In this document: positions 17,764 through 64,000 of the stretch, piece by piece | Layout: every line of letters begins with the position of its first letter | How positions within the stretch are numbered: position 1 is the first letter of the stretch | Source: a virus | Lineage: Duplodnaviria > Heunggongvirae > Uroviricota > Caudoviricetes | DNA: 64,000 bases | Reading direction: 5' to 3' (one strand) | Virus record (IMG/VR): IMGVR_UViG_3300051215_000059 | The notes under the pieces: generated by a model | What the model saw: only the letters and a program-made list of their open reading frames with translations | Database searches by the model: none | What the model was told of the DNA's origin: nothing | Made by a program: the position numbers and the translations under genes

Positions 17764-17919
17764 ATGAACGACAACCTATATAAGTTGGTCTTCTTTCTTC
17801 TATTTGCAGAAAAGCAAGACGACAAAATGATGTTTGGTGGACACTCTATCAACGAAGTAGTTGATGCTCTTGCAGAGATTATGAAAGTTCCACCTGACAA
17901 GCTAAGAGAGTTAGCATAA
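17764..17919 (+). CDS. small hypothetical protein (51 aa)
   Basis: fills gap, ends with TAATG overlap onto 17919 gene. Confidence 0.3.
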   Translation: MNDNLYKLVFFLLFAEKQDDKMMFGGHSINEVVDALAEIMKVPPDKLRELA

Positions 17920-18431
17920 TGAGTTATCGATATCTTGTGTTTTTGGACATTGACGGAGTTTTTACTTCGTCGCGTGTCCATTATGCACATAACTCAGAAT
18001 ATAAGATGTGGGCAAGATTCGACCCAGTTGCAGTCGACTTTATGAACAAGATTCACGATAGGTATCCTGTTGAGTTTGTTCTTATGTCAACTTGGAAGAA
18101 TGGACTTCGTAATGACGATATAATGATTGAACATTGGGTTCGTTCTGCTTTTGCCAACTCTGGATTTCGTGGCATGATCGCAAATCCTTGGAAAACCGAC
18201 CCTGATAACTTTGCGACCCATAAAAAATGGGACAGGGCAAACGAAGTCAAAGACTATCTTGAAAATTTTGCAACCGATGTAGATGATTTCATCTTGTTTG
18301 ATGATAATCGGTATCGGTTCAAAGAAATCCTTGGAAAAGGAAGATTGGTTCAGACCGATCCAGAAAACGGTCTATTATATAAACACATGCTCAATGCACA
18401 AAGCATCATGGGCAATTGGATAGAAAGGTAA
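17919..18431 (+). CDS. HAD-superfamily phosphatase
   Basis: motif I FLDIDGVFT (DxDGx) near N-terminus, conserved downstream Ser/Thr and DD motifs. Confidence 0.6.
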   Translation: MSYRYLVFLDIDGVFTSSRVHYAHNSEYKMWARFDPVAVDFMNKIHDRYPVEFVLMSTWKNGLRNDDIMIEHWVRSAFANSGFRGMIANPWKTDPDNFATHKKWDRANEVKDYLENFATDVDDFILFDDNRYRFKEILGKGRLVQTDPENGLLYKHMLNAQSIMGNWIER

Positions 18432-18435
18432 TCTA

Positions 18436-18990
18436 ATGGAAAGTTTTATTGGTGCATTTAGTGGCGTTTGGGCGGCACTATTTTTGATTGTGTTCCTTGC
18501 ATCTGGTATTTTGGCAAGCCGAACCGAAAGTATGATTATGGGTCTTGGAATGCTATTCCTTGGCGCAGTGGTCGCAGAATACGTAGTGGGAATTGCAGTG
18601 GTTTCATACGTCCTTGCAAACCCATTGTCTATTGCCCTTATTGCGTTGGTGTATGGTGCAATTGGTGCAGTATATACTGGTTTGTGGCGCTGGCCTCTGT
18701 TTATCACAAGCCATCACTATGACATTGAAGATAAGTTCAAGTCTTGGCATCGCAATCACGAAGGAACGTTTGACGACTTTTTGGACTCATATGAGTATTC
18801 AAAGTATACCGCCCGTAATAACAAGGACCGTCTTGCTTCCTACGTTCTAATGTGGCCATTTCACTTTACTTGGGAAATTATTCACAAGCCATTCGTGTGG
18901 GTATACAACTTCGTCTACGTTTTCCTTGGAAGCACGTTTGACAAAATCGGCAAATACTATGCAAAGAAACTGCACAGTGAGCGTCATTGA
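18436..18990 (+). CDS. integral membrane protein (3-4 TM)
   Basis: hydrophobic helices throughout N-terminal half. Confidence 0.5.
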   Translation: MESFIGAFSGVWAALFLIVFLASGILASRTESMIMGLGMLFLGAVVAEYVVGIAVVSYVLANPLSIALIALVYGAIGAVYTGLWRWPLFITSHHYDIEDKFKSWHRNHEGTFDDFLDSYEYSKYTARNNKDRLASYVLMWPFHFTWEIIHKPFVWVYNFVYVFLGSTFDKIGKYYAKKLHSERH

Positions 18991-19553
18991 TGTGTAAGCT
19001 GACGTTTGTGTATTCGTCAATGAACTCTGGTAAGAGCCTTTCGGTTCTTACCAGAAATCATACATTGACCCAAAAAGGTTTTCGAACTGTATTGATGAAG
19101 CCAGCCGTGGATGATCGCTCCACTGCTATTACTACGCGCCTTGGTATTGAGCATGATTGTTTGATTGTTGGTCCAACTGATATGCCAAGCGCCAAGATTC
19201 TGAAGTCACACGCCACCAAGCCAGACTTCTTGATGGTTGATGAAGCACAATTTCTTACTAAAGAACAGGTGTGGGATTTGGCAAATCTGGTTGACAACTG
19301 GGACATAAACGTGTATTGTTATGGTCTGCGGCTAAACTGGCAGGGCGAGTTTTTCACTGGTTCTGAAGAACTGATGAAAATCGCAGATGAACTTATACCG
19401 ATTGAAAACTTCTGCAAAGAAAACAAAGGTGCGTTGGCGTTCTTTCACATCAAAAAAGGCGGAAACGACAACCCAGTAGAAACTGGATACGAGGATTTGT
19501 ATGATACTGTATCTCGCAAAGTGTGGAAACAGTGGTGGGAAAGTAAGCAATAA
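18987..19553 (+). CDS. tdk: thymidine kinase
   Basis: P-loop SSMNSGKSLSVL, VDEAQF motif, C-terminal zinc-ribbon region. Confidence 0.85.
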   Translation: MMCKLTFVYSSMNSGKSLSVLTRNHTLTQKGFRTVLMKPAVDDRSTAITTRLGIEHDCLIVGPTDMPSAKILKSHATKPDFLMVDEAQFLTKEQVWDLANLVDNWDINVYCYGLRLNWQGEFFTGSEELMKIADELIPIENFCKENKGALAFFHIKKGGNDNPVETGYEDLYDTVSRKVWKQWWESKQ

Positions 19554-19555
19554 TC

Positions 19556-19963
19556 ATGTTTGATGTATTTCGTATCAGGGCGAGACTCAGAAAAAGAAGA
19601 ATCCGCAAGGTTCTTGAAGATTCTGGTTGTCGCTCTTGGTATGAATATCATATGATTCGAGACCCGAACTTGAATGTAGATGCAAAGACAGTTCAAGAGT
19701 TTTATCGTGGTTACATTCTGTTTGAGGTTCCATTTGGAATTGTAATGCGACAACCATCGTATGACCAAGGACTTTTTTCAGACGGAACGTTGGAATTTCG
19801 TATTTGGTGCAAACATAACTGCGAAGGAAAATATAGAGTTCATTGGCATAGAACTCGTTCCGATGGCAAATTTGACTACTTTGATGGTCGCGGCGGTGAA
19901 GCAGTATATGTCGCATTTGAAAATGAAACTGATGCCGCAAGGTTTGCACTGACATGGTTATGA
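19556..19963 (+). CDS. hypothetical protein
   Basis: 135-aa ORF. Confidence 0.5.
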   Translation: MFDVFRIRARLRKRRIRKVLEDSGCRSWYEYHMIRDPNLNVDAKTVQEFYRGYILFEVPFGIVMRQPSYDQGLFSDGTLEFRIWCKHNCEGKYRVHWHRTRSDGKFDYFDGRGGEAVYVAFENETDAARFALTWL

Positions 19964-20214
19964 AAACTTGGGCGATTGAAGTATACTACGGAAACACAAA
20001 TCCGTTTTATGTCAAGAGGAACAAAGTTGACAGATGGCGAAATATCCTACGTGATACAGGATTTGTGACTAAAGAGGTGACGGTGACACAAGCTGAAGAA
20101 ACTGTCAGATGGGTTGTCGCACATCCAACAAACGAGAATGCATTGGAAGAAATGATGCTTATGCAAGGCGACATACTTCCACCAGCAAAAATAATGGAGA
20201 TTGAATATGCATAG
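19954..20214 (+). CDS. hypothetical protein
   Basis: 86-aa ORF in gene train. Confidence 0.45.
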   Translation: MVMKTWAIEVYYGNTNPFYVKRNKVDRWRNILRDTGFVTKEVTVTQAEETVRWVVAHPTNENALEEMMLMQGDILPPAKIMEIEYA

Positions 20215-20449
20215 GACAGTTACAGTAGACGTTGAAGTAGAGGTAGACTTGGATGACTTCACCGATGATGACTTGGTGGAAGAACTCAAATTTCGCGGCT
20301 ACATCGCAGAGCCAGAAGACAACTATGTTTCAGAGCAACATTTGGACAAGTTTGACCTTGAGTTTCTTATTGAAACGATTGACAAACAAGAACAAACTTG
20401 GTATACTCGCACGGTAAGAGACAAACTACATAAATTGAGGTTCAAATGA
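20201..20449 (+). CDS. hypothetical acidic protein
   Basis: 82-aa ORF. Confidence 0.45.
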   Translation: MNMHRTVTVDVEVEVDLDDFTDDDLVEELKFRGYIAEPEDNYVSEQHLDKFDLEFLIETIDKQEQTWYTRTVRDKLHKLRFK

Positions 20450-20724
20450 ACATACTACAGCAACTAATGGTCATCACAATGGAAGAATGTGCGGAACTTA
20501 CCCAGCAATGCAGTAAGACAATCCGCAAATATGAAACCGTTGAAGAAGCAAACGCTGATAATCCAAAGGCAAAACTTAATCGTGACAAGCTGGTAGAAGA
20601 AGCTGGCGATGTATTGTGTATGCTTCAACTCATGGTTGCCCACAATATGGTGACGTGGGATGAACTTGAACTTCGCGCTGAAGTCAAAAAAGAAAAACTG
20701 AAAAGATGGAGTGATTTGGTATGA
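20446..20724 (+). CDS. MazG-like nucleoside triphosphate pyrophosphohydrolase
   Basis: EECAELTQ...EEAGDVLCMLQLM all-alpha NTP-PPase motifs. Confidence 0.7.
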   Translation: MNILQQLMVITMEECAELTQQCSKTIRKYETVEEANADNPKAKLNRDKLVEEAGDVLCMLQLMVAHNMVTWDELELRAEVKKEKLKRWSDLV

Positions 20725-22136: not shown

Positions 22137-24599
22137 ATGAAAACAACAAGGATAACCAACGCAACATTCGCAAAAAGTGTATCGTTACTAAAATCTTCTA
22201 CCGCACTACCAGAAATGTCGTATGTGTTTGAATTAAAATTTACATTGAATAATCCAAACACATACGATGGTGGTTCATATGCAGCAAACGACAAATTTGC
22301 AACTGCGATATCGACATCTGGAAACTACACAATCGTTGGTTCACAAGACGAGGGTGACGCTATCGGAACCATGTCTGGAGTTGCATATATATATTCAAAC
22401 TCAACTGGTCAATTATTATACACTCTTAGAAATCCAAATCCATTTGGAACAAGCACAAATGATTTTTTTGGACAGGCAGTCGCAATTTCTAACAATTATG
22501 CCATAGTTGGTGCATCAGAAAGCGATGCAAATGGAACGGCGTCAGGCAAAGCATATATATATTCTACATCCACAGGCCAATTGATATATACACTAGACAA
22601 TCCAAATCCAGTTGACACTAGTCAGAGTGATCGTTTTGGACAGGCAGTCGCAATTTCTGACAGTTATGTTATAGTTGGTGCAAACGGCGAGGACGATGCT
22701 GGGTTGAATTCGGGCAAGGCGTATGTCTTTTCTCTGGCAACTGGGCAATTAGTTTATCAACTTGATAACGTAAATGCCACCGGAACAACTGCTTCTGACT
22801 TGTTTGGAATATCCGTTGGTATAACTGATACATACGCAATTGTTGGCGCACATCAAGAAGATGTTGGTGGTTCAAGTTCAGGTTCTGCTTACATTTTCTC
22901 CATGTCTGATGGCTCCCTGCAATATACACTAAACAACCCAAATGCATATGGAACAAGTGCAAGTGATTTCTTCGGTAGATCAGTTGCAATTTCTAACAAT
23001 TATGCCATAGTTGGTGCATACGGCGAGGACGATGCAAATGGAACGACATCAGGCAAAGCGTATATATACTCATTGAGTAATGGGTCTTTACTATATACAT
23101 TGAACAATCCAAATCCAGTTGGAACAAGTGCAAATGACAATTTTGGATATTACATTGATGTATCTGACACACATGCTGTTATAAGCGCACATACAGAAGG
23201 AACCAGTGTTGGTGGTGGAGCAATTGCTACTACCGCTGGAAAAGCATATGTATATAACTTATCATCTGGAAGTCTGGTGTATACCATTGACGACCCAAAT
23301 GCTTTTTCAACGGCCACGGCAGATAATTTTTCACAATTTGCAGTTTCAATATCAAATGACTACGTGAGTGTTGGTGCATGGAACGAAGATTCTTCCAATG
23401 CAGCAGGGACTACAATCAACGCAACAGGGAGAGCTTATATATTCTCTGCAAGCAATGGCACACTTCTTCACACATTAACAAATCCAAACGCTTTCGGGTC
23501 TGGATCGTTTGACGAGTTTTCTCGTTACAACGGGGTGTCAGTTTCAAGTATGTATACCGTGATCGGTGCGGCGAATGAAGACTCTGATGGCGTAATGGAC
23601 GCGGGAAAAGCATATATATATTCAAACTCAACTGGACAATTACTATATACGCTGAACAATCCGATTACTGTAAGTCCTGGATATATAGCGTTTGGCACCT
23701 CAGTCGCAAACACAAATGATTATGTCGCAGTTGGGTCTCCATATGGGTATGTTCATGTATTTAATACTCAAGGCCAGTTTTTGCATACAATTACAAATCC
23801 AATAGCTTCACTTACATCCTTTGGCGACGACATTGATATTGAAGGAACTAATCTCATAGTGGGGTCATACGGCGCGACTGATGGCGGTCGGGCATATATC
23901 TATAATGTTGAAACTGGATCGCTATTATATACGCTTATAAATCCAAATGCTTTTGATACAGCGGCAAATGACAATTTCGGATATTCAGTTGGTATTTCTA
24001 ACAATTATGCAATCGTCGGCGCATCATTAGAGGATGATGCAAATGGAACGACATCAGGTAAAGCATATGTATATTCCACAACTACGGGTCAGTTGCTATA
24101 TACACTAGACAATCCAAATCCAGTTGGAACAAGCACGAATGACGGATTTGGAACTTCAGTCGCAATTTCTAACAACTATGCAATCGTCGGTGCATATGGA
24201 GAAAGCGATGCTGGTGGAACCAGTTCAGGAAAAGCATACATCTATTCCACAACTACGGGCCAATTGCTATATACACTAGACAATCCAACCCCATATGGAA
24301 CAAGTGCAAGTGATTACTTTGGGCGCTCAGTATCTATATCAAATAATTATGCTATAGTTGGGGCAGTTTTTGAAGATGATGCAAATGGTTTGTCGTCAGG
24401 TAAAGCATATGTATATTCCACAACTACTGGTCAGTTGCTATATACACTAGACAATCCGAATCCAGTTGGGACTAGTCAGAACGACAATTTTGGACAGTCA
24501 GTTGAAATTTCTGGTAACTATGCCATTTTTAGTGCGTATGGTGAAGATGAATCTAATGGATTAAATTCAGGTAAAGCATATCTATACACATTACCATAA
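22137..24599 (+). CDS. FG-GAP repeat (integrin-alpha-like beta-propeller) protein, 820 aa
   Basis: about 13 tandem ~57-aa units GKAYIYS.STGQLLYTLDNPNP.GTS..D.FGQSVAIS.NYAIVGA..EDDANG; RBS GGAGAAACAAC. Confidence 0.75.
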   Translation: MKTTRITNATFAKSVSLLKSSTALPEMSYVFELKFTLNNPNTYDGGSYAANDKFATAISTSGNYTIVGSQDEGDAIGTMSGVAYIYSNSTGQLLYTLRNPNPFGTSTNDFFGQAVAISNNYAIVGASESDANGTASGKAYIYSTSTGQLIYTLDNPNPVDTSQSDRFGQAVAISDSYVIVGANGEDDAGLNSGKAYVFSLATGQLVYQLDNVNATGTTASDLFGISVGITDTYAIVGAHQEDVGGSSSGSAYIFSMSDGSLQYTLNNPNAYGTSASDFFGRSVAISNNYAIVGAYGEDDANGTTSGKAYIYSLSNGSLLYTLNNPNPVGTSANDNFGYYIDVSDTHAVISAHTEGTSVGGGAIATTAGKAYVYNLSSGSLVYTIDDPNAFSTATADNFSQFAVSISNDYVSVGAWNEDSSNAAGTTINATGRAYIFSASNGTLLHTLTNPNAFGSGSFDEFSRYNGVSVSSMYTVIGAANEDSDGVMDAGKAYIYSNSTGQLLYTLNNPITVSPGYIAFGTSVANTNDYVAVGSPYGYVHVFNTQGQFLHTITNPIASLTSFGDDIDIEGTNLIVGSYGATDGGRAYIYNVETGSLLYTLINPNAFDTAANDNFGYSVGISNNYAIVGASLEDDANGTTSGKAYVYSTTTGQLLYTLDNPNPVGTSTNDGFGTSVAISNNYAIVGAYGESDAGGTSSGKAYIYSTTTGQLLYTLDNPTPYGTSASDYFGRSVSISNNYAIVGAVFEDDANGLSSGKAYVYSTTTGQLLYTLDNPNPVGTSQNDNFGQSVEISGNYAIFSAYGEDESNGLNSGKAYLYTLP

Positions 24600-25815: not shown

Positions 25816-26057
25816 AATCTGATACTCTACAAATAACGATGGAGATTTCTGATCCATGGACAAAGGAATCTGCTCTAAAACGATTATGCGAAGACCACGA
25901 GAAGATAAACTTTCTATGTCATAATAGCAACAAGTATGAATTTTCTAATCATGTCTTTGATATGGACCTTGACGCAGAAATGTGCGATGTGGTATTCTAT
26001 CTTGATGATATAAGCAAGGCACATTATGTGCTAATATACGGAGAATACGATGTCTGA
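25812..26057 (+). CDS. hypothetical protein
   Basis: 81 aa. Confidence 0.45.
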   Translation: MKSDTLQITMEISDPWTKESALKRLCEDHEKINFLCHNSNKYEFSNHVFDMDLDAEMCDVVFYLDDISKAHYVLIYGEYDV

Positions 26058-26598
26058 TATTTGGGTTACGAGTGATACTCACTTTTTCCACAAAAACATT
26101 CTGTCATTTACCGACAGCAATACTGGTTTGAAGATTCGGCCAGAGTTTTCTACAGTTGAAGAAATGAATGAATGTATGGTTGACCGCTGGAATAGTGTGG
26201 TCAAACCAGGCGATAAAGTCTATCACCTTGGTGATGTCGTCATGGGAAACCTTGACGATTTCAAAAAGCTATGGCCGAAACTAACTGGAAGTAAACGCCT
26301 GATTGTTGGAAACCACGATGATATCAAGTTTCTATCAAGTGGTGGCTTCTTTCAGAAAGTTCAAATGTGGAGAATGTTTCCAGAGTTTGGTTTGATGTTC
26401 AGTCATGTTCCGCTTCATGAAAGTTCTCTGTTTCGTGGTGCGCCAGACAAGAGTTTCGCAGAACATCCGCCAAACCAACTTCTCAACGTGCATGGACATA
26501 TTCACCAAAATCCTTCACCAGAAGGACCATATAAGTGCGTCTGTGTTGAACAAACCAACTACACCCCTGTAAACATCGAAGAACTTCGCATCAAATAA
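26050..26598 (+). CDS. calcineurin-like metallophosphoesterase
   Basis: motifs SDTHF (DxH), LGDVV (GD), IVGNHDD (GNHD). Confidence 0.7.
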   Translation: MSDIWVTSDTHFFHKNILSFTDSNTGLKIRPEFSTVEEMNECMVDRWNSVVKPGDKVYHLGDVVMGNLDDFKKLWPKLTGSKRLIVGNHDDIKFLSSGGFFQKVQMWRMFPEFGLMFSHVPLHESSLFRGAPDKSFAEHPPNQLLNVHGHIHQNPSPEGPYKCVCVEQTNYTPVNIEELRIK

Positions 26599-33452: not shown

Positions 33453-33469
33453 TAAGAAAGAAACATAAA

Positions 33470-34722: not shown

Positions 34723-34723
34723 T

Positions 34724-53312: not shown

Positions 53313-53447
53313 AAGCAAAACCAACTGACGACCAAATCAAAGAGTTCATTGAAATGTTTGGGAGTAAAATCCCAAACCCTCAACAATACCCAAAGTGTTT
53401 TGAGCACTATTGGAAAATGTATCTACTTTCAAAAAGAGAGGAATGAA

Positions 53448-53651
53448 ATGCAAAAAGTTCTAATGGTCGATCCGCCAGAAGGTTGGAAGTATGGATTTCC
53501 AAAACAGATGCATGACGAATATTTTCTGTTGGGAGAAGATTTTGATTTTGAGCGTTGGTTGGTTTCAGAAGGCTATCCGCAATCAATCATAGATAGTTTT
53601 CCGAACAAAGAAATTTTTTGTCGTTGTTGGTGGGCTGAGATAGAAGAATGA
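53448..53651 (+). CDS. hypothetical protein
   Basis: AGAGAGGAATGAA RBS then ATG 53448. Confidence 0.4.
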   Translation: MQKVLMVDPPEGWKYGFPKQMHDEYFLLGEDFDFERWLVSEGYPQSIIDSFPNKEIFCRCWWAEIEE

Positions 53652-55160: not shown

Positions 55161-55170
55161 GGAAAAGAAA

Positions 55171-55599
55171 ATGAGTGTTATTGAAAAACTAAAAGCTGAA
55201 TCCATCGCACTGCGTAAAACTCGCAGTCCCATTGCGCCATCCATTCTTTTTGCACTTAGCGAAATTGAAAAGGTTGGCAAGAATAACGGCAACCGCGAAA
55301 CCACAGAAGACGAAGCCATCAAGGTTATTCAGAAACTTATCGTCACTATTGACGAAAACTTGAAGCTGAATATTGATGATGGTCGGCGTGTTGCTCTAAA
55401 CTTTGAAAAGAATATTCTTTCTGGTGTTCTGCCACAAATGGCCTCAGAAGAAGAAATTCGTTCAAAGCTGGTATTCGCCTTCGGTGGCAAACAGGTCCAA
55501 AATAAGGGCGAGATTATGAAGTGGGCAAAGTCTCACTGGGGTGTTCTTGCCGACATGAAACAAGTTGGCGCAATTGCGTCTGAACTGTTTGGCGTATAA
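55171..55599 (+). CDS. GatB/YqeY-domain protein
   Basis: AGGAAAAGAAA RBS; IEKLKAESIALRK...TEDEAIKVIQKLI resembles YqeY. Confidence 0.55.
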   Translation: MSVIEKLKAESIALRKTRSPIAPSILFALSEIEKVGKNNGNRETTEDEAIKVIQKLIVTIDENLKLNIDDGRRVALNFEKNILSGVLPQMASEEEIRSKLVFAFGGKQVQNKGEIMKWAKSHWGVLADMKQVGAIASELFGV

Positions 55600-55613
55600 A
55601 GAATAGGAAAATA

Positions 55614-56153
55614 ATGACAATACATGCAATGATTGATTTGGAGACGCTTGATGTGTCTCCAACAGCACAAGTTTTATCCATCGGTGGGGTAAAATTTAAT
55701 CCAAACAGTAAAGAAAATCCATTTGATGAGTTTTTCTATCGGGTGGATATTGACTATCAGGAAAGCACTGGTAGAACGGTAAGCACAGAAACGTTGGATT
55801 GGTGGTCCACACAAGACAAAGACGCAATTGAAATGGCGTTCTCACCAGAAGGGCGTGTTTCCCCACATGAAATGCTTCGCCATTTGAAAAAATGGTATGT
55901 TGGCTGTGATGCCATCTGGTCACAACGTATTTTGATGGACGTTGGAATTATACAAAACATGTGCAAGCAATACGATTCTCCCGTTCCTTGGCCATACTGG
56001 GCAATCAAAGACAGTGCCACACTGTTTAGTATTTTGCCAGACGACCCAAGGAAAGCATACACGTTTTTGAAGCATGACCCACTACAGGATGCGAAATTTC
56101 AAGCAAAATCCGTCCAAGATGCTATCGCCACATTGGGTTTGAATATCCGATGA
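55614..56153 (+). CDS. DEDD-family 3'-5' exonuclease (Rv2179c-like exoribonuclease fold)
   Basis: Exo I motif MIDLETLD, later DAIW and H...D motifs. Confidence 0.55.
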   Translation: MTIHAMIDLETLDVSPTAQVLSIGGVKFNPNSKENPFDEFFYRVDIDYQESTGRTVSTETLDWWSTQDKDAIEMAFSPEGRVSPHEMLRHLKKWYVGCDAIWSQRILMDVGIIQNMCKQYDSPVPWPYWAIKDSATLFSILPDDPRKAYTFLKHDPLQDAKFQAKSVQDAIATLGLNIR

Positions 56154-56422
56154 CTAACATAGTAAGTTTGGATGAATATCGGTCCAAAAAAGAAGACTCT
56201 ACCTATCGTCCGCAAGACGAAGTAGAGTCTCTTGAACTCATGAAATCCATTATCACCATACTTTTGAAATACAAATACAATGCGTATGACGTGCAAACAG
56301 CAGAGAATATGATTTTACTGAGCATGTTATTTCAAGCACACATCAATCATTTGAATGATATTGACGATGACTTATTTGAAGTTTTCTCTCTCATTAGTGA
56401 AAGGCTGACAAACAATGAATAA
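56150..56422 (+). CDS. hypothetical protein
   Basis: 90 aa. Confidence 0.45.
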   Translation: MTNIVSLDEYRSKKEDSTYRPQDEVESLELMKSIITILLKYKYNAYDVQTAENMILLSMLFQAHINHLNDIDDDLFEVFSLISERLTNNE

Positions 56423-56963
56423 TGCACTATCATTTGTTGTTTACGATAAATACAACCACAACAATAATAATAACAAGGAATACAAAGAATTGAGTGGGGA
56501 CATTATTACCGAACAGGGACGAAAACAAATTTTGGAAAAAATTCAAATTCTTTCCAAAAAGAAACCACTAATTTCTGAGCAAATTAAAGATGCCAGAGAA
56601 AACGGGGGCGTAGAAGAAAATGAAGAATTTTCTATGGCACTCGAAGAAATGATGAGATTGGATATGGAGATTGCAAAACTCCAATTCATAGCAGAAACAT
56701 ATACTATCATACCAACAAAAGCAAAGGGGGAATATAGTAAGGTCGAAGTTGGGCTGAGTGTGACTGTGAAAAACTTATCGACTGACAAAATTATAACATA
56801 CACAATCCTTGGAGAGACGGACAGCAATCCGTCTGAGGGCGTTATAAGTCATAGATCGCCAGTTGGAAAAGAACTATTAGGATGTTCAATTGGTGATATT
56901 GCTTATATTGAACGAAACAAAGATTATATAGAACTCGAAATTTTGAAAATTTTCGCAAAATAA
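56415..56963 (+). CDS. transcript cleavage factor GreA/GreB-like protein
   Basis: N-terminal coiled-coil ARENGGVEENEEFSMALEE; C-terminal FKBP-like ILGETDSNPSEGVISHRSPVGKELLGCSIGDIAY. Confidence 0.65.
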   Translation: MNNALSFVVYDKYNHNNNNNKEYKELSGDIITEQGRKQILEKIQILSKKKPLISEQIKDARENGGVEENEEFSMALEEMMRLDMEIAKLQFIAETYTIIPTKAKGEYSKVEVGLSVTVKNLSTDKIITYTILGETDSNPSEGVISHRSPVGKELLGCSIGDIAYIERNKDYIELEILKIFAK

Positions 56964-56966
56964 TCA

Positions 56967-56995
56967 TTGACACGACCGACGAATCAGAATATAAG
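56967..56995 (+). promoter_or_regulatory. sigma70-like promoter TTGACA-17-TATAAG with GACGAATC box
   Basis: TTGACACGACCGACGAATCAGAATATAAG. Confidence 0.55.
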
Positions 56996-57027
56996 TAAGA
57001 TGCAAAAGAAACAAACATGGAGCGACA

Positions 57028-57567
57028 ATGAAAAGGTTACACCTTGCAGCGTTTCTCATGAATGCTACTGTAGCAATAGGACTTGCGGGTCTCGGAGTTC
57101 ATGAGGTTAAAGCAGAGTCAGAAAGACGTATAGCGATGGCTACGTCTATTGACAATCAAGTTCAAAAAGTGAACATTGAAAAACAAACAGATTGCCTTGC
57201 AAAAAATATCTATTTTGAGGCACGAAACCAATCGTTTCTTGGGCAACGGGCAGTTGCTTGGGTTACACTCAATCGGGTAAAAGACGAACAATATCCGAAA
57301 AGCGTATGTGAAGTTGTATGGCAAGATGGCCAATTCTCTTGGACAGAGGATGGCAAATCGGATAAACCAAACGACGAAACATCTTGGATGCTTGCACAAT
57401 TCGTTGCCGAAATTGCAATGTATTCATACGGCCAAATTCCAGACCCAACGAATGGCGCGACTATGTATCATGCCGACTACGTTGACCCTTACTGGAGTTC
57501 AAAATTTGTAGAAACCGTTGAGATTGAGGATCACATTTTCTACAAAGACGAGAAAAAAGGTTCTTGA
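57028..57567 (+). CDS. secreted SleB/CwlJ-family cell-wall hydrolase (candidate endolysin)
   Basis: signal peptide; LAKNIYFEARNQSFLGQRAVAWVTLNRV Hydrolase_2 motif. Confidence 0.7.
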   Translation: MKRLHLAAFLMNATVAIGLAGLGVHEVKAESERRIAMATSIDNQVQKVNIEKQTDCLAKNIYFEARNQSFLGQRAVAWVTLNRVKDEQYPKSVCEVVWQDGQFSWTEDGKSDKPNDETSWMLAQFVAEIAMYSYGQIPDPTNGATMYHADYVDPYWSSKFVETVEIEDHIFYKDEKKGS

Positions 57568-57636
57568 CAACGATATACGAATCTGCTATAAATAATGTAT
57601 CAGAAACAAGAACTTAACCGTGGAGAATAAAATGCG

Positions 57637-57789
57637 ACGATGACGGTTACATCTTAATGTTATGACTGACTTATAGATATATGAGACTAATTTAGTATGA
57701 TGAGCGCCGAATAATGGGAATGCTGCTCGTAAAACAAAAAACTAACCTTCAACCTCCACTTGGAGTAAGTGTCATGTAACCGTCATCGT
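57637..57789. repeat. perfect 16-bp inverted repeat flanking a 121-bp ORF-free spacer
   Basis: ACGATGACGGTTACAT 57637-57652 and ATGTAACCGTCATCGT 57774-57789. Confidence 0.6.
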
Positions 57790-57882
57790 TATTTTAATAT
57801 TATTAATCGGTGAAGCCGCAACGAGAAATGCTCACCCAAATCAAAAACTTTCTCTTCTTAAATTTGTCAATATGAGGAAAAT

Positions 57883-58155
57883 ATGGCAAACCCAAATACC
57901 CAGAAGAATCGTCGCCCACAATCAAATCAATCAAACCAGCGGCGTTCTCGGACACCTTCGCTAGATGAAGCAATCAAACTTGTGAAACAACATCGTGGCA
58001 AGGAAAATCTTTACGGTATGCTATCCACGAATGACCGTGGTGATGTCACCGAAGTCGGTGTTTATAACGGAAACACAAAACGATACGCGCTATACCGAAG
58101 CGACCTTGTTGATGCCGACACCCTGACAGAGTTCAAAACAATTCTCGGTAAGTAA
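57883..58155 (+). CDS. hypothetical basic protein
   Basis: GAGGAAAATATG RBS; N-terminal RRPQSNQSNQRRSR. Confidence 0.5.
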   Translation: MANPNTQKNRRPQSNQSNQRRSRTPSLDEAIKLVKQHRGKENLYGMLSTNDRGDVTEVGVYNGNTKRYALYRSDLVDADTLTEFKTILGK

Positions 58156-58186
58156 AAAAAAGGGTGGGCAACGTCCCACCCTTTAT
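58153..58186. terminator. stem-loop terminator flanked by A-run and T-run
   Basis: AAAAAAAAGGGTGGG-caacgt-CCCACCCTTTAT. Confidence 0.6.
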
Positions 58187-58196
58187 CATATGGAAA

Positions 58197-58382
58197 ATGC
58201 AGATGCGTTTTAAAAACAAAAAAGAAATGACCGATTGGGCTTACGAACAATTTGACAAGTTTGGGGTTCGTAAACCAGAATCGTATACTGAACAGGAATT
58301 GATTAATTTAAATCCAAGTGTTCCTGTTGATTTCATAAAACAACATGTAAAAAATAGGAATAAGAATGCGCATAGAAAATGA
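58197..58382 (+). CDS. small hypothetical protein
   Basis: ATG 58197 after terminator, within ORF-track frame. Confidence 0.35.
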
Positions 58383-59538
58383 AGTATTGCTGGATTACAG
58401 CGATGTTCTAATTCGCCCAAAACGAAGCACACTCAAAAGCCGTTCAGATGTAAGTCTGGAACGGTCATATACATTTAGAAACTATGTTTCTGGTCCAAAC
58501 GAAACCATGAATGAAGTGTTTGATCGTAACTACTCTCAATACAAGGGGGTTCCCATCATGGCTGCAAACATGGATGGTGTTGGAACATTTGAAATGGCAG
58601 ACGTTCTATCCAGCCAAAGCATTTTTACTTGCTTGGTAAAAACATATTCGATGGATGAACTCGTTGAGTTCTTTTCACAAAACGTTGAACGTAGAACTCA
58701 ACATGTAGCTATGAGTATTGGCACCAGTAATGCAGACTATGACAAGTTTGTTCAGGTTTATGCCAGAGTTGGTGATAATCTAAAATATCTTTGTATTGAT
58801 GTTGCAAATGGATACAGTCAGCATTTTGTTGAACATGTAAAAAACATTCGCAAAATATATCCAAACATCGTTATCATCGCAGGAAACGTTGTTACCGCAG
58901 ACCAAACACAGGAATTGATTCTAAATGGAGCAGACATTGTTAAAGTTGGGATTGGTCCTGGTAGCGTCTGCACCACTCGGATACAAACTGGTGTCGGTTA
59001 TCCCCAACTCTCGGCTATCATTGAGTGCGCGGATGCGGCTCATGGTCTTGGTGGACATATTATTGCTGACGGGGGCTGTTCTTGTTCTGGGGACGTTGCC
59101 AAGGCTTTTGCAGGGGGTGCTGACTTTGTAATGCTAGGTGGCATGTTGGCTGGCCATGACGAAGGTGGTGGCGAGGTGATAAGTAAATGGTATAACACAG
59201 GTGAATACAAACACACTGGCACACCAGAAACTTTTGAAAGTTTTCAACCCATCATCGCAGAAAAGAAATTTGTTCAGTTCTATGGTATGAGTAGCGATGC
59301 TGCTAACACTAAACACTTTGGTGGCCTCAAAGATTATCGGGCAAGTGAAGGCAGAGAAGTATTGGTTCCGTATCGTGGAAATGTATCCAATACCATTCAA
59401 ACTATTCTTGGCGGAATACGTTCAACTTGCACTTATGTTGGCGCACCTACCTTGAAACAACTCAGTAAATGCACCACATTTATTAGGGTAAATAATCAGT
59501 ATAATCGGACATATGAGTCCACAACAACAAAAATGTAA
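58366..59538 (+). CDS. guaC: GMP reductase (IMPDH/GMPR family)
   Basis: N-terminus [29 protein letters not shown] and [33 protein letters not shown] match GuaC. Confidence 0.85.
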
Positions 59539-59547
59539 GGAAACAAA

Positions 59548-59748
59548 ATGGAAATTCTATTCTTTCTACTAATATTCTCGTTTGGCGTAGGATATTGGGC
59601 AAACTCTTGGGGTCGAAATGGTTGGGGTTGGGGCATAGTAGCCTTCATTCTTTCTCCCCTGCTTGTAGGTATAGCACTGCTTATTGCTGGTAAAACTGTA
59701 GAAAAGAAAGCAGAGGAAGCAAAACGTATCAAGGATATTGTTGGCTGA
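59548..59748 (+). CDS. small membrane protein
   Basis: AAGGAAACAAA RBS; two TM helices. Confidence 0.5.
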   Translation: MEILFFLLIFSFGVGYWANSWGRNGWGWGIVAFILSPLLVGIALLIAGKTVEKKAEEAKRIKDIVG

Positions 59749-59754
59749 TAATGA

Positions 59755-60027
59755 ATGTATGATAAGAACTCCAACCTCGATTATAAAGTAAACATCGTTA
59801 ACTCGCGATACATACACGGGGCTGGACTTCCATACACTGTTGTTGTTAGTTTCGATTTAGGAAATTACGACAACCATCATATAAAAAAATGCATCAAAGA
59901 TTTTCGTAACCTTCTTTCTGAAAACTGTGGAAAAGACATAGGAATATATTTTGACAAATATAGTATGATGGCAACTCTCAGTTTTCGCAACGAAGATGAT
60001 GCAGCAATATTTACAATGTTGATATAG
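59755..60027 (+). CDS. hypothetical protein
   Basis: 90 aa. Confidence 0.45.
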   Translation: MYDKNSNLDYKVNIVNSRYIHGAGLPYTVVVSFDLGNYDNHHIKKCIKDFRNLLSENCGKDIGIYFDKYSMMATLSFRNEDDAAIFTMLI

Positions 60028-60028
60028 A

Positions 60029-60457
60029 ATGAAAGTAGGATTTACAGCTTCGTCATTTGATTTACTACACTCAGGTCACACACTGATGCTTGAAGAAGCT
60101 AAAACAGTGTGTGACTATCTTATTGTAGGACTTCAAACTGACCCGACAATAGACCGCCCACAGAAGAACAAACCAGTTCAAACTGTGGTTGAGAGATACT
60201 TGCAACTAAGAGCATGTAAGTATGTTGATGAAATTATCCCATACGCTACCGAACAAGACTTGGAAGATATTCTTTCTGGTATGCATATTGATATTCGTAT
60301 TCTTGGTGTTGAATACAGAGACATGGATTTCACAGGCAGAGACATCTGCAAAAAACGTGGAATTGAAATTTACTTCAACCAAAGAGATCACAGATTTAGT
60401 TCAAGTGACCTAAGAAAAAGAGTAACGAATGAAGAACTACAAAAGACCCAAAAGTAA
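60029..60457 (+). CDS. cytidylyltransferase-like nucleotidyltransferase (TagD/RfaE-domain-II-like)
   Basis: MKVGFTASSFDLLHSGHTLML (HxGH motif). Confidence 0.65.
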   Translation: MKVGFTASSFDLLHSGHTLMLEEAKTVCDYLIVGLQTDPTIDRPQKNKPVQTVVERYLQLRACKYVDEIIPYATEQDLEDILSGMHIDIRILGVEYRDMDFTGRDICKKRGIEIYFNQRDHRFSSSDLRKRVTNEELQKTQK

Positions 60458-60743
60458 AGGCGACCATAAATATACCATATATCAAGATGGAAACATTACA
60501 ATGTATTATAGATACGGGTGTCTTCATAGAGAGAAAGGTGCTGCATATATTGACCACACTGTAAATAGAAAGATATATTATCGTTATGGCAAGATACATC
60601 GCAATGATGGTCCAGCCGATATTATTGAAAATGAGTTTTCAGACTTCTATTTGAATGGTGAACGATATAATTTTGACGAATGGGTCAACAAAACGAATGC
60701 GTCTGATGAAGTAAAGGCGCATCTTATTTTATTATATGGATGA
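60429..60743 (+). CDS. MORN-repeat-like protein (start uncertain)
   Basis: repeats YYRYGCLHREKGAAY / YYRYGKIHRNDGPAD. Confidence 0.4.
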   Translation: MKNYKRPKSKGDHKYTIYQDGNITMYYRYGCLHREKGAAYIDHTVNRKIYYRYGKIHRNDGPADIIENEFSDFYLNGERYNFDEWVNKTNASDEVKAHLILLYG

Positions 60744-60747
60744 AAAA

Positions 60748-60996
60748 ATGAAAGCAAAAATATATACCAAGAATGGATGCAGTTATTGCATTCAGGCAAA
60801 AACTCTATTGCAAATTCGTGGTGTTCAGTATGAAGAACTGAATGTTGAGTTTGTGGATGGAGCGAAAGAAAACATGCTTGCAGAATGTGCGGCAGTAAAT
60901 TACACTCCAAGAACATATCCTCAAATATGGGTAGATGGAAATCACATTGGTGGATTCACTGAACTAAAAGCATACTTTGACAAAGTAGTATGTTGA
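60748..60996 (+). CDS. glutaredoxin / NrdH-like redoxin
   Basis: MKAKIYTKNGCSYC CxxC thioredoxin-fold start. Confidence 0.7.
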   Translation: MKAKIYTKNGCSYCIQAKTLLQIRGVQYEELNVEFVDGAKENMLAECAAVNYTPRTYPQIWVDGNHIGGFTELKAYFDKVVC

Positions 60997-60999
60997 CCG

Positions 61000-61560
61000 A
61001 ATCATAGAGTCTATGATACTCTTATAAAGTCAGGTGTATACCTGTCATATAAAGGTAGTAAAACTTATAACACAGACAATGAGGATGTATCCTCTGTTAC
61101 GTTTTCGGTAGTAATAAACCACTATGCGAATAGATATAGTGACAATGTGTGCTCTGGCATTTTACCGATGCCAGAGTTCGTTTATGTAATCAAGATGACC
61201 ACTTGAAAAATGAGCGGGCAATCCATGACACTTAGGGAACCCGCAAGACTGCTAATGTTATTCATACAGCTATAGCAAGTCTGCGTCATAATAAGTTAGA
61301 ACGTAAAATGGCACCGCGTGACCACCATAACCTGACGTAACAAGGTTGTTCTGTATGAAGTATCAGTGTGACGGAAAAGATTTCCCCATAGATACACGCT
61401 TGCCAGCCTGAAGGCAAAGTGTATCTTGGCTCTGGAAATGATATAAGAAAATAATATCATAACTAAAAAATTATGATGGATATGAATGACGAAGCGATAG
61501 CAAGGAATGAGTGTCCATCATAATTTGATACTTACAGAGTAAGTATCTGTATGAATCCAC
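61000..61560. other. about 560-bp ORF-free region with several local hairpins
   Basis: no ORF of 60 aa or more on either strand; palindrome ATCATAGAGTCTATGAT 61001-61017; 9-bp stem GATACTTAC/GTAAGTATC 61527-61548; 7-bp stem ATCATAA/TTATGAT around 61455-61478. Confidence 0.5.
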
Positions 61561-61589
61561 TTGACAAATGAATCTGCATAGTATATGTA
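61561..61589 (+). promoter_or_regulatory. putative promoter TTGACA-17-TATGTA
   Basis: TTGACAAATGAATCTGCATAGTATATGTA upstream of 61619 gene. Confidence 0.35.
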
Positions 61590-61618
61590 TGGATTCGAAA
61601 TAACCGATAGGAAATCAC

Positions 61619-62728
61619 ATGACCGCATACTATGCCTTTCTATTCCTTATCCCTGTTGTGATATGGATTGGAATCACAAAGACCTTCCTACACATGAACA
61701 TCACTTGGGGTGAAGTTGCTATTCAATTTGTAGCAACAAGTCTTATCATTTTTCTGGTATTTCTTGCTGGCATTGGGTCACAGACAAGTGATGTAAAATT
61801 CGTAAATGGCGTAGTAACTGAACTCGTCAAAGAAAGAAAGTCTTGCAATCAATATTGGAGCGATTGGCCAGATAGCTTCTGCACCAATCAACAAACAAGA
61901 ACGGTAAGGAATGGGCAAACTTGCACAACCGTCAATAATAAACGCACTTGCACTCCAAAATACAAAACTCAATATCGTTCAAAATATTCTTGGGAACAAA
62001 AGTATTTTATTGAAACAACGATTGACACGTATCAAATTTCTCGTGTTGATGCCCAAGGCGTAAACATTCCGCCTCGCGTTGCAGAAGCGAATGTTGGTGA
62101 CCCTGTATCTGGTCAAGTATCGTATACAAACTATATTCGTGGTGCGTCTACAAGTCTCTTCAACAAACATCTGAAACCAGAAGAACTGCCTTCTATCTCC
62201 TATCCTGCCATCTATGACTTCTATCGTTCTGACCGTGTGATTACTGTTGATTATTCTATGCCAGAAACAATGAAAGCAGAATGGAACAAGAAACTTTCTA
62301 TTCTAAACTCTGATATTGTGAAAACTGGCGCAAACGTAATCATTGTAGTAACCAGTAAGAATCAAGACTTTGCTGAACAACTGGCACAATCTTGGGATGC
62401 CCATAATATCAATGACGTAATCGTTGTGATTGGTATGGCAGACAACAATATTTCTTGGGTGGATGTGCGTAGTTGGAGTGAAGATAGCATTGTAAACGTG
62501 AAAATCCGTGATGCAATTTATGATGCGAAAGTTCTTGACATTGATACGATCAATACCTATATTGGGAATGTGATTCGAAGCGACTACAAACTTCAATCAA
62601 TGGACGACTTTGAATACCTGTCCAACGACATTGTTCCGCCTACTTGGGCATTTGTCTTGGCACTCATCGTGCTTCTAATTGTAACCCCTGCAATCACCTA
62701 TGTGATGAACAAATATAAAATCGTCTAA
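61619..62728 (+). CDS. membrane protein (N-terminal 2 TM, C-terminal TM), positional partner of LemA
   Basis: 369 aa; TM helices at both ends. Confidence 0.55.
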   Translation: MTAYYAFLFLIPVVIWIGITKTFLHMNITWGEVAIQFVATSLIIFLVFLAGIGSQTSDVKFVNGVVTELVKERKSCNQYWSDWPDSFCTNQQTRTVRNGQTCTTVNNKRTCTPKYKTQYRSKYSWEQKYFIETTIDTYQISRVDAQGVNIPPRVAEANVGDPVSGQVSYTNYIRGASTSLFNKHLKPEELPSISYPAIYDFYRSDRVITVDYSMPETMKAEWNKKLSILNSDIVKTGANVIIVVTSKNQDFAEQLAQSWDAHNINDVIVVIGMADNNISWVDVRSWSEDSIVNVKIRDAIYDAKVLDIDTINTYIGNVIRSDYKLQSMDDFEYLSNDIVPPTWAFVLALIVLLIVTPAITYVMNKYKIV

Positions 62729-62738
62729 GGAGAAAAAG

Positions 62739-63284
62739 ATGAAATACCTAATCGCTGCCCTTGTCTTTGTTGTCGGTCTGGTTGGCCTTGTGTTCATGAG
62801 TTATGTGTCCGCGTATAACACTGGTAACCGACTTGAAAATCAGATTGTCGCAACATTTGAAGACAACAAAAACATTCTTGCTCAATACAGTAATCGTATT
62901 GCGGAAGCCGCTCAAATCCCCGCAATGCAACGAGACGATTTGACTGCGGTTGTAACCGCTGCCCTTGATGCTCGTTATGGAGAAGAAGGTTCAAAAGCTA
63001 TGTTCCAGTTCATTCAGGAACAAAACCCAACCATTGACAGCACTGTATACACTCAACTACAACGCATGATTGAAGCGGGTCGTATTGACTTTGCAACTGC
63101 CCAAACTCGGTTGATTGATCAGAAACGTGTATATGAAACTGCCCTTGGTTCATTCTGGCAAGGCACTTGGATGCGAGTCGCTGGATATCCAAAAATTAAT
63201 CTTGACGACTACAAGATTGTGACCAATGCCCGAACTGAAGAAGCGTTCAAGACTGGTGTCGAAGAACCACTCAAACTACGATAA
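62739..63284 (+). CDS. lemA: LemA-family membrane protein
   Basis: GGAGAAAAAG RBS; N-terminal TM then YNTGNRLENQIVATFEDNKNIL...QRDDLTAVV LemA core. Confidence 0.7.
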   Translation: MKYLIAALVFVVGLVGLVFMSYVSAYNTGNRLENQIVATFEDNKNILAQYSNRIAEAAQIPAMQRDDLTAVVTAALDARYGEEGSKAMFQFIQEQNPTIDSTVYTQLQRMIEAGRIDFATAQTRLIDQKRVYETALGSFWQGTWMRVAGYPKINLDDYKIVTNARTEEAFKTGVEEPLKLR

Positions 63285-63293
63285 TCTCAACAA

Positions 63294-63320
63294 AAGGCGG
63301 CTTCGGTCGCCTTTTTTATT
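63294..63320 (+). terminator. rho-independent terminator
   Basis: AAGGCGGC-ttcg-GTCGCCTT then TTTTTATTT; same TTCG tetraloop design as terminator at 32734. Confidence 0.75.
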
Positions 63321-63348
63321 TGACAATCTTGGGTTATCAACTTATCAT
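63320..63348 (+). promoter_or_regulatory. sigma70-like promoter TTGACA-17-TATCAT
   Basis: TTGACAATCTTGGGTTATCAACTTATCAT immediately after terminator. Confidence 0.5.
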
Positions 63349-63377
63349 AGAAGTATAGAAACAGAAAGGAACCGAAG

Positions 63378-63578
63378 ATGAAAGTAAAATACGAAGTCTG
63401 CACTATTGAATCAGAACGTGGTTGGGGACAAAAACGAGAATATGCTTTGTTTGATACGATAGAAGAAGCCATCAAGTATCGTGACCATATCAACTCATTC
63501 AATGAGCCACCAGAAGCAATCGCACCTGATTGGTATATGATTGCCGAACAAGAAATACGAGTTGTGGAACAAAAATAA
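63378..63578 (+). CDS. hypothetical protein
   Basis: AGGAACCGAAG RBS then ATG. Confidence 0.5.
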
Positions 63579-63600
63579 AGAGGGGAAACCCTCTTTTTTA
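63579..63600 (+). terminator. rho-independent terminator with GNRA tetraloop
   Basis: AGAGGG-gaaa-CCCTCT then TTTTTT. Confidence 0.75.
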
Positions 63601-63601
63601 T

Positions 63602-63630
63602 TTGACAAGGTAAGAATCATACTGTATGGT
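63602..63630 (+). promoter_or_regulatory. putative promoter TTGACA-17-TATGGT (weak -10)
   Basis: TTGACAAGGTAAGAATCATACTGTATGGT, contains GAATC box. Confidence 0.35.
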
Positions 63631-63658
63631 GTAACAGTAATGAGAAAGGAATCACCAA

Positions 63659-64000
63659 TGCAAACATTTCTGGTCGGCGGTGCTGTTCGCGATATGCTGA
63701 TGGGCATGGAGCCGAAAGATAAAGATTTTGTCGTGGTCGGTTCCACGGTCGAAGAAATGCTGGCTGCTGGCTTTGAAAAAGTTGGCGCTGATTTTCCTGT
63801 GTTTCTGCACCCCGAAACTGGTGAAGAATTTGCTCTGGCTCGTCGTGAAAAAAAGACTGGCACTGGGTATCTGGGTTTCACTTCTGAGTTCGGCACTGAT
63901 GTGACGCTGGAAGAAGACCTGGGTCGACGTGACCTGACCATCAACAGCATGTCTCTGCAACGCATGGAAGACACTGAGTTCTTTGTTGAAGGCGATGAAG
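63659..64000 (+). CDS. cca: CCA-adding tRNA nucleotidyltransferase (partial, runs off window end)
   Basis: [16 protein letters not shown]...[10 protein letters not shown]...[22 protein letters not shown] matches Cca N-terminal pol-beta NTase head; codon usage (CTG-rich) differs from rest of window. Confidence 0.85.

Follow-up and report, generated by a model that had tools for sequence, protein, structure and literature searches.

We analysed a 64,000-nucleotide stretch of viral DNA (IMG/VR record IMGVR_UViG_3300051215_000059; hereafter the window), which comes from an uncultivated jumbo phage roughly 350 kb long, with syntenic relatives of 350-356 kb, and which carries a set of genes with predicted roles in RNA repair and tRNA maintenance. 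These genes, all on the plus strand, code for an RNA ligase of the Rnl5 family, a HAD phosphatase, two metallophosphoesterases (MPP1 and MPP2), a hydrolase with the fold of peptidyl-tRNA hydrolase 2 (PTH2), a YqeY protein, a DEDDh exonuclease and a CCA-adding enzyme, and are accompanied by genes for IF3 and bS21. An earlier note, made from the letters of this DNA, had described the ten genes as a dispersed damage-repair toolkit for tRNA and mRNA. All ten are indeed present with the domains it gave them and without internal stop codons (by Pfam, with PTH2 recognised by its fold and the CCA gene cut by the end of the window). Eight of them lie in the span that the note had assigned to the toolkit (17919-64000), and IF3 and bS21 lie outside it, at 7.0-7.8 kb. 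Judging from sequence, we consider it fairly probable that the window carries its clade's version of the RNA-repair and translation-support set known from jumbo phages.

The phage has been assembled repeatedly, with proteins identical to those of the window found on contigs from at least six samples. Related contigs measure 347-374 kb, and two of them are syntenic with the window: a 356-kb GenBank contig (GCA_902725615.1) and a 350-kb contig from the Joint Genome Institute. Decay of the genes of interest in relatives, which the earlier note had thought worth checking, was not seen; they are intact, with 77-99% amino acid identity on the 350- and 356-kb contigs. About 16 kb of flanking sequence was recovered, with loci L083 and L084 (99.99% identical to the window) adding 7.2 kb upstream and locus L001 (99.99% identical to window positions 52739-64000) adding 9.3 kb downstream. 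A megablast search with 8 kb of the window against 50,697 phage records gave no match. The long open reading frames (ORFs) of the window are nearly all on the plus strand and its GC content is about 0.41. Within its 64 kb, ARAGORN found no tRNA genes and an Rfam scan found no RNA families. Pfam scans covered every plausible ORF of the window, with proteins joined by GS linkers; the resulting "Serglycin" matches are artefacts and were ignored. By its gene content, the window is an auxiliary region typical of a very large phage.

The RNA ligase (42079-43089) matches the PHA02142 OB domain (3e-31) and RNA_ligase (7e-26), and scores 200 bits against TIGR02306, the DraRnl equivalog model, with a cut-off of 151.15. 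It aligns colinearly and over its full length (residues 1-334; phmmer) with NgrRnl of Naegleria gruberi (PDB 5cot; E=5e-72), and its domain order by Pfam, an N-terminal OB domain (residues 4-95) and a C-terminal RNA_ligase nucleotidyltransferase domain (169-324), is shared with NgrRnl and with DraRnl of Deinococcus radiodurans. The lysine of the KxDG motif, whose absence would have counted against the earlier note, is K173 in MKLDG (codon 42595-42597) and aligns with NgrRnl K170 in motif I. QGEVMG holds the counterpart of NgrRnl E227 (the motif III Glu), REGLVWK that of E312 (the motif IV Glu) and FSFKTIS that of K326 (the motif V Lys). These three residues are essential in NgrRnl by mutagenesis and all are kept in the window ligase, as are the equivalents of NgrRnl R4, D53, K121, R149 and D172, which contact ATP or metal. 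Predicted from its residues, then, the window ligase is a catalytically complete Rnl5, keeping every active-site residue that has been probed in NgrRnl. It differs from NgrRnl and DraRnl in its phage context; viral Rnl5 genes often stand beside an Rnl1 gene (35 of 80 loci, described below), and the window has no such neighbour. The ligase is less than 60% identical to any record in the phage collection. By analogy with its characterised relatives, it would seal nicks in duplexes and would not be an anticodon-loop ligase.

Three candidate phosphoesterases with putative substrates could remove 3'-phosphates or cyclic phosphates from RNA. First, the HAD protein (17919-18431) is a standalone "Swiss-army-knife" phosphatase of the HAD_SAK_2 family (PF18143, E=2.4e-19, 70.5 bits; cut-off 27.5) that also matches phrog_1818. 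It has the DxD nucleophile motif, and its motifs FLDIDGV, MST and FDDN are kept in 13 relatives. A tblastn search with it against phages gave only 19 weak matches of 26-27% identity, and is too insensitive for counting co-occurrence. A minus-strand ORF that overlaps the HAD gene (17250-17990) is low-complexity nonsense and was discarded. Second, MPP1 (26050-26598) is a small calcineurin-like metallophosphoesterase (Pfam Metallophos, E=6.8e-6) with matches to phrog_547 "phosphoesterase" (E=1e-48) and to the uncharacterised protein aq_1665 (PDB 1xm7, E=1e-12). Third, MPP2 (38416-39111) is another metallophosphoesterase (Pfam Metallophos, E=1.6e-6; phrog_1649), for which an AlphaFold2 model reached a predicted local distance difference test score (pLDDT) of 85.8. 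The top Foldseek match of this model was Dbr1 (E=2e-7, query TM-score (TMq) 0.6), followed by Rv0805, LpxH, GpdQ and Mre11. Since the RNA lariat debranching enzyme Dbr1 is the nearest solved relative of MPP2 both by profile and by fold, an RNA phosphodiester substrate is modestly favoured for this enzyme.

A short distance downstream of MPP2 lies the gene for the PTH2-fold hydrolase (39376-39777). Its Pfam match is marginal (PF01981, 23.8 bits against a cut-off of 23.0) and covers residues 4-61 only, the N-terminal third of the protein, and a profile of 39 homologues reached 1rlk among PDB sequences at E=0.31. A phmmer search of the protein against the PDB returned spurious antithrombin matches only, and a fold search was used instead. 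An AlphaFold2 model built from the 39 homologues has a pLDDT of 90.6, and the seven top places in its Foldseek list go to chains from four entries of the PTH2 family (1rlk, 1q7s (human Bit1), 2zv3 and 3erj), with 1wn2 ranked ninth (E from 8e-4 to 4e-2, TMq 0.43-0.58, probability 1.0). On the strength of this model, the gene is assigned a PTH2 fold. Residues K20 and D92 are invariant in the 39 homologues and may correspond to the catalytic Lys and Asp of archaeal Pth2. In the window, as in nine of the 11 other loci with PTH2 homologues, the MPP2 gene precedes PTH2 on the same strand at a distance of 0.3 to about 3 kb, and this pairing holds down to 56% PTH2 identity. An ORF at 46420-46803, whose N-terminus by eye recalls the N-terminal motif of PTH2, was rejected as a second PTH2 (BLASTP against PTH2, E=0.48; no Pfam match); its product of 127 amino acids aligns with phrog_5822 over the C-terminal half of the latter (E=3e-49), and relatives have it at 92-93% identity.

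The CCA-adding enzyme gene begins at 63640 or 63658 and runs past the end of the window at 64000, which contains its first 120 residues (Pfam PolyA_pol head domain, E=1e-14). The full gene, found in the downstream flank (L001:10902-12170), has PolyA_pol, PolyA_pol_RNAbd and HD domains and scores 480.4 bits against PRK10885, with a cut-off of 451. It is classified by these matches as an E. coli-type multifunctional CCA addition and repair protein with an HD domain, being like E. coli Cca (PRK10885) in exceeding the cut-off and in its head, RNA-binding and HD regions, and unlike it in being encoded by a phage whose tRNA array, 3.2 kb further downstream, already encodes CCA. This array, 4.1-7.9 kb past the window end, consists of six tRNA genes predicted by ARAGORN (L001:15364-19145), namely Arg-TCT, Leu-TAA, Met/Ile-CAT, Leu-CAA and a pair whose unusual anticodons are called Tyr-ATA and Ser-ACT; Rfam confirms four of the six. 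Because all six genes encode their 3' CCA, Cca is not needed to mature the phage tRNAs, which fits end repair, the role of its E. coli family. A gene for a TilS N-domain protein (L001:16079-16672; TIGR02432, 103.9 bits against a cut-off of 93.6) lies 250 nucleotides downstream of the CAT tRNA gene, and the two together suggest a phage lysidine tRNA-Ile2 system.

The exonuclease and YqeY genes are adjacent in the window. The former (55614-56153) codes for an Rv2179c-like DEDDh 3'-5' exonuclease (PF16473, E=3e-29, 102.4 bits against a cut-off of 27) that also matches phrog_255 "exonuclease". The latter (55171-55599) codes for a YqeY/GatB-tail protein, a putative tRNA-binding module (PF09424, E=4.8e-7, 30.4 bits with the cut-off at 27; phrog_1460, E=4e-21). 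YqeY resembles the tRNA-binding tails of GatB and GlnRS (PMC13374519, PMC1865053), and its homologues lie 0.6-7 kb from Rnl5 in seven viral loci, with an eighth locus (L011) also having one. Since rpsU and yqeY share one operon in bacteria (PMC13374519), the window YqeY may, by analogy, belong with bS21 and IF3. Just upstream, ORFs 54367-54774 and 54681-55160 overlap and share the terminal motif AW(D/E)HYQMLAGLC. They resemble a diverged tandem pair of paralogues, and neither matches a known family. The first of them was considered as IF3 and rejected, having no Pfam match, the real IF3 being at 7010-7597.

How these genes are arranged elsewhere was assessed in 80 IMG/VR viral contigs that carry an Rnl5 46-78% identical to that of the window, taking up to 10 kb on each side and clustering the ORFs. 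The counts are raw, ignoring kinship between contigs, and gene orders differ between loci. Among the 80 loci, Rnl5 has as neighbours within 10 kb an Rnl1 in 35, an AAA_33 kinase in 13, MPP1 in 12, MPP2 in 10-11, HAD_PNKP in nine, and YqeY, DUF2828/DUF7788 and DNA ligase in eight each; the DEDD exonuclease occurs in seven, and the CCA enzyme and PTH2 in four each. In one locus (L007), Rnl5, MPP2, PTH2, Cca and YqeY are found within 8 kb, another (L020) has MPP1, SPFH, Toprim, DNA ligase, Rnl1, Rnl5, MPP2, PTH2 and Cca, and a third (L013) has HAD_PNKP, AAA_33 kinase, Rnl1 and Rnl5. A homologue of MPP1 follows Rnl5 at a distance of 2 bp in five loci that are probably one lineage (L042/43/45/48/57).

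Loci carrying the other genes of the set give a similar picture of shifting company. The HAD gene stands near MPP1/MPP2, PTH2, DUF2828, AAA_33 or Macro in L022, L089, L093, L094, L097/98, L181 and L187: HAD, MPP1 and MPP2 are together in L094, where the MPP1 homologue adjoins HAD; HAD is with DUF2828 in L089, L093 and L022; and HAD, thymidine kinase, MPP2 and PTH2 are together in L097/98, with an AAA_33 kinase 9 kb away. L181 has MPP2, PTH2, AAA_33, Macro, HAD_SAK_2 and thymidine kinase, L186 has MPP1, YqeY, Band_7, RlaP and PTH2, and L187 has MPP1, Band_7, MPP2, PTH2, two tandem copies of HAD and thymidine kinase within 13 kb. The gene families of the window thus recur in related contigs beside genuine RNA-repair genes, namely Rnl1, AAA_33, HAD_PNKP, cREC, RlaP, Macro and DUF2828.

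In the window itself, MPP2, PTH2, Toprim and Rnl5 are found within 4.7 kb (38416-43089). The genes are dispersed, as had been claimed, in being spread over 46 kb, and not dispersed in so far as this cluster and the adjacent YqeY and exonuclease genes are concerned. In relatives these genes return close together, a few kb apart and in changing orders, so that the window looks like a stretched, partly rearranged copy of a conserved island. Between Toprim and Rnl5, the window (40877-42079) and its closest relatives L180 and L183 have small ORFs only; the more distant relatives L006 and L020 have a DNA ligase and an Rnl1-type RNA ligase there.

The earlier note had seen no polynucleotide kinase in the window, and our searches agree. 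Among real genes of the window, a Walker-A motif was found in ClpX only (the P-loop of the thymidine kinase is a variant that this pattern does not capture), and tblastn with the AAA_33 kinases of relatives gave no match in the window, the 9.3 kb downstream or the 7.2 kb upstream. HAD_PNKP and Rnl1 homologues of relatives likewise had no match in the window or its flanks, and the Pfam family RNA_lig_T4_1 gave within the window a sub-threshold match only, on the Rnl5 gene itself. The note had also proposed that a kinase partner might be found elsewhere in the genome. None was present in the window or flanks, and AAA_33 kinases are indeed carried by relatives of 350, 356 and 347 kb.

On the 350-kb relative, the gene order is the same as in the window from MPP1 to beyond Rnl5, and the same strand carries, 61-70 kb downstream of Rnl5, a second cluster in the order cREC_REC, AAA_33 kinase, two proteins without annotation, an NMNAT-Nudix fusion, NAMPT, HNH and Rnl1. 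Its kinase lies 61 kb from Rnl5. The 356-kb relative has this kinase cluster too, with a kinase at least 90% identical, and a 347-kb contig carries a related kinase together with a PTH2 homologue. On the 350-kb contig, then, a T4-type Rnl1 and a kinase occupy a cluster separate from the arm that holds Rnl5, the phosphoesterases and PTH2. The cREC_REC domain is a "cyclic-phosphate processing receiver" domain, and a jumbo-phage survey (PMC7824862) links cREC to RNA ligases. The arrangement of cREC, kinase and NAD salvage genes recurs on one further contig. Because of the synteny with the 350-kb relative, the kinase, cREC and Rnl1 of the window phage are probably located about 40 kb past the window end. 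As for details of such clusters, the AAA_33 kinase in L182 (8979-19863) and in L184 sits between cREC_REC and the NAD+ salvage genes (NMNAT-Nudix, NAMPT), HNH and an Rnl1 ligase lie about 8 kb downstream of the kinase in L182, and the two conserved proteins directly after the kinase (191-195 and 336-337 amino acids) have no Pfam match.

IF3 and bS21 stand apart from this set. IF3 (7010-7597, with a start at 7073 in related-contig calls) matches IF3_N (E=1.7e-23) and IF3_C (E=4.6e-19) and scores 148.3 bits against TIGR00168, with a cut-off of 60. The bS21 gene (7590-7838; Pfam Ribosomal_S21, E=5.6e-13; TIGR00030, 51.3 bits against 28.95) overlaps its 3' end, and the pair is found between ClpX and Hsp20/ClpS. 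The block at 5836-9700 is tightly packed, its gene ends overlapping, and comprises ClpX, IF3, bS21, an 89-amino-acid ORF, Hsp20, ClpS and an MTA/SAH-type nucleosidase; these proteostasis and translation-initiation genes appear to form one unit. Homologues of IF3 were found in 102 phage records, mostly of jumbo phages, and the window IF3 is at most 43% identical to any of them. According to the jumbo-phage survey, IF3 occurs in group 2.2 jumbo phages (PMC7824862). Capture of initiation by phage bS21 or IF3 has been discussed for other phages (Mizuno et al. 2019, PMC6375957; Chen et al. 2022, PMC9723584). Like those, the window proteins exceed the equivalog cut-offs; unlike them, their genes overlap head to tail and stand between ClpX and Hsp20/ClpS. 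The two were counted among the repair genes in the earlier note, an assignment that we do not retain: they are translation-initiation genes in a Clp/Hsp20 block, and probably a separate pair that biases initiation on host ribosomes.

The concept of a phage RNA-repair kit is not new. In section 3.4.9 of their survey of 224 jumbo phages, Iyer, Anantharaman, Krishnan, Burroughs & Aravind (2021, Viruses 13:63; PMC7824862) describe ATP-dependent RNA ligases alongside polynucleotide kinases, two families of HAD phosphatase (one of them the standalone "Swiss-army-knife" family), occasional calcineurin-like and HD phosphatases, RlaP, a CCA-adding enzyme, PTH2 and phage tRNAs, with IF3 in a few jumbo phages. 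The window and its flank share with the kit of that section an RNA ligase, the phosphatases, the CCA enzyme, PTH2, IF3 and tRNAs, and differ from it in belonging to a clade absent from cultured phages and in that the kinase and Rnl1 lie outside the 64-kb stretch. The word "Rnl5" is absent from that survey, and the MPP2-PTH2 pair and the Dbr1-like fold of MPP2 were not met with in the portions consulted. With the concept already in print to the extent that this section covers it, the window is a further, fairly ordinary instance of it.

If the genes form such a kit, they would act on damaged RNA in several ways. HAD, MPP1 and the Dbr1-like MPP2 would remove 3'-phosphates, 2',3'-cyclic phosphates or 2'-5' linkages, and Rnl5 would seal RNA nicks with 3'-OH and 5'-PO4 ends. 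PTH2 would release peptidyl or blocked aminoacyl groups from damaged tRNA, and Cca would rebuild the tRNA CCA end, perhaps after trimming by the DEDDh exonuclease. A 5'-kinase, cREC and Rnl1 elsewhere in the genome would handle 5'-OH ends and anticodon-loop breaks, completing heal-and-seal. In phage T4, Pnkp and Rnl1 heal and seal tRNA after cleavage by the anticodon nuclease PrrC. The window set resembles that system in that a phosphatase would prepare the ends and a ligase join them, and HAD shares its fold with the phosphatase domain of Pnkp; some relatives, L013 for example, carry cassettes of HAD_PNKP, AAA_33 kinase and Rnl1. It differs from T4 in that the window is without kinase, HAD_PNKP and Rnl1, and in that its ligase is a predicted duplex-nick sealer. 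In itself the window is not a T4-type Pnkp/Rnl1 system, since searches of it for a kinase and for Rnl1 gave neither; such a system probably operates alongside it. The repair function put forward in the earlier note thus gains from the domains, the neighbours and the published jumbo-phage kit, and loses the part that would have Rnl5 join anticodon-loop breaks.

Several observations weigh against a common repair pathway, and an unlikely, though still appreciable, alternative is that the window holds unrelated auxiliary genes of a hyperplastic region. According to this explanation, HAD would serve nucleotide salvage together with thymidine kinase, the DEDDh enzyme would be a DNA exonuclease, Rnl5 would seal RNA-DNA junctions in replication or repair, and the metallophosphoesterases would break down small molecules, such as immune signals of the cyclic-nucleotide or 2'-5'-linked kind. 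Thymidine kinase (18987-19553) lies 0.5 kb downstream of HAD in the window, the distance being 0.3-2.3 kb in the window, L088, L091/92, L097/98, L181 and L187, and it is HAD's most constant neighbour wherever the flank sufficed; this may indicate a nucleotidase role in nucleotide salvage instead of RNA repair. The exonuclease's only sequence relative in the PDB, 8kel (E=0.0025), is named "Exodeoxyribonuclease". Neighbours of Rnl5 in relatives include DNA ligase, Toprim, RuvC and NT5C (an RNase H/FEN-like label given to a further one comes from reading the sequence and is unconfirmed). Rnl5 itself is a nick-sealing ligase whose physiological role has been called "uncharted", and one genetic study tied DraRnl to recovery from ionising radiation and DNA damage (PMC5397189). 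Metallophosphoesterases of the MPP2 fold also hydrolyse cyclic nucleotides and lipids, as seen among its Foldseek matches, which include the cyclic-nucleotide phosphodiesterase Rv0805 and GpdQ; by analogy with such phosphodiesterases, an anti-signalling role of the window enzymes is possible. The window genes are spread among metabolic, proteostasis and membrane genes, a promoter and terminator scan of 38.0-43.6 kb did no better than on shuffled sequence, and co-localisation within one clade may be inherited synteny and not selection for linkage. In a metagenome scan with an Rnl1 alignment, none of the matches listed (at least 80 loci) came from the phage's own samples. Nonetheless, HAD scores far above the cut-off of the RNA-repair family HAD_SAK_2, the most recurrent annotated neighbours are Rnl1, AAA_33, HAD_PNKP, RlaP, cREC, Macro and DUF2828, and PTH2, Cca with its HD domain, YqeY, TilS and the tRNA genes are unambiguously tRNA-related. 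We therefore continue to favour the RNA-repair and translation-support set over a chance collection.

Toxins are known that act on the 3' end of tRNA. A module for rescue of the tRNA acceptor end, distinct from anticodon-loop heal-and-seal and with no need for a kinase, would counter host toxins that acetylate, extend, phosphorylate, trim or cut that end: PTH2 would strip blocked or peptidyl groups, 2',3'-cyclic or 2'/3'-phosphates would be cleared by the Dbr1-like MPP2 and by the HD domain of Cca, the DEDDh exonuclease would trim aberrant 3' extensions, and Cca would rebuild CCA. The MPP2-PTH2 pairing, the location of Cca 1-3 kb after PTH2 in L007 and L020, the HD-containing repair type of Cca, phage tRNA genes that do not require it for maturation and a window without a kinase are all consistent with such a module. 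Its basis is purely gene identity and adjacency, and in the window the exonuclease and Cca lie 16-24 kb from PTH2; we judge it improbable.

The remaining genes of the window are varied. By Pfam, they include a lipase, SNase, WYL_2, DHFR, an IscA-like protein, SPFH, a UDP-glucose dehydrogenase-like protein, a SleB-like hydrolase, GMP reductase, a cytidylyltransferase and glutaredoxin. An FG-GAP_2 repeat protein of 820 amino acids (22137-24599; E=1e-111, 8 stretches) and a secreted S8 subtilase of 888 amino acids with a hydrophobic N-terminal leader (26633-29299) are also encoded, as are a GreA-type transcript cleavage factor below the NCBIfam equivalog cut-offs (56415-56963) and a 130-amino-acid ORF (49710-50102) whose initial ~30 residues align with the N-terminal end of T4 Gp23, the major capsid protein (PF07068, E=1.4e-7), with no match beyond them. 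Two segments, 29313-30047 and 33400-38200, lack an equivalent in both the 350- and the 356-kb relative, indicating insertion here or deletion there. The first contains a 279-amino-acid ORF with a P-loop-like PRSGST motif. The second contains ClpP, MotA/ExbB, an SbmA/BacA-like transporter (Pfam E=1.4e-76), which is unusual in a phage, and four ORFs without a Pfam match, most of them with hydrophobic N-termini. Outside the window, an alternative oxidase (AOX) gene is found upstream (L083:1-33) and an ornithine/DAP (diaminopimelate) decarboxylase gene downstream (L001:19191-20318). In two related loci, a homologue of ribosomal protein L12 (PF00542) is encoded a few kb from HAD and thymidine kinase (L181:17923-18324, L187:19888-20274); none was found in the window.

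What the window offers to further work is two concrete handles. One is a phage Rnl5, predicted to be catalytically complete, from a ligase family whose role has been called uncharted (PMC5397189), and the other is a Dbr1-like phosphoesterase conserved together with PTH2. Neither would alter current thinking unless tested biochemically. For the phages themselves, the window adds an uncultivated jumbo phage, assembled recurrently from at least six samples, to those with RNA-repair and translation genes. The kit that it probably represents would be a conserved island that has loosened, with the core of kinase, cREC and Rnl1 and the arm of Rnl5, phosphoesterases and PTH2 in separate clusters.

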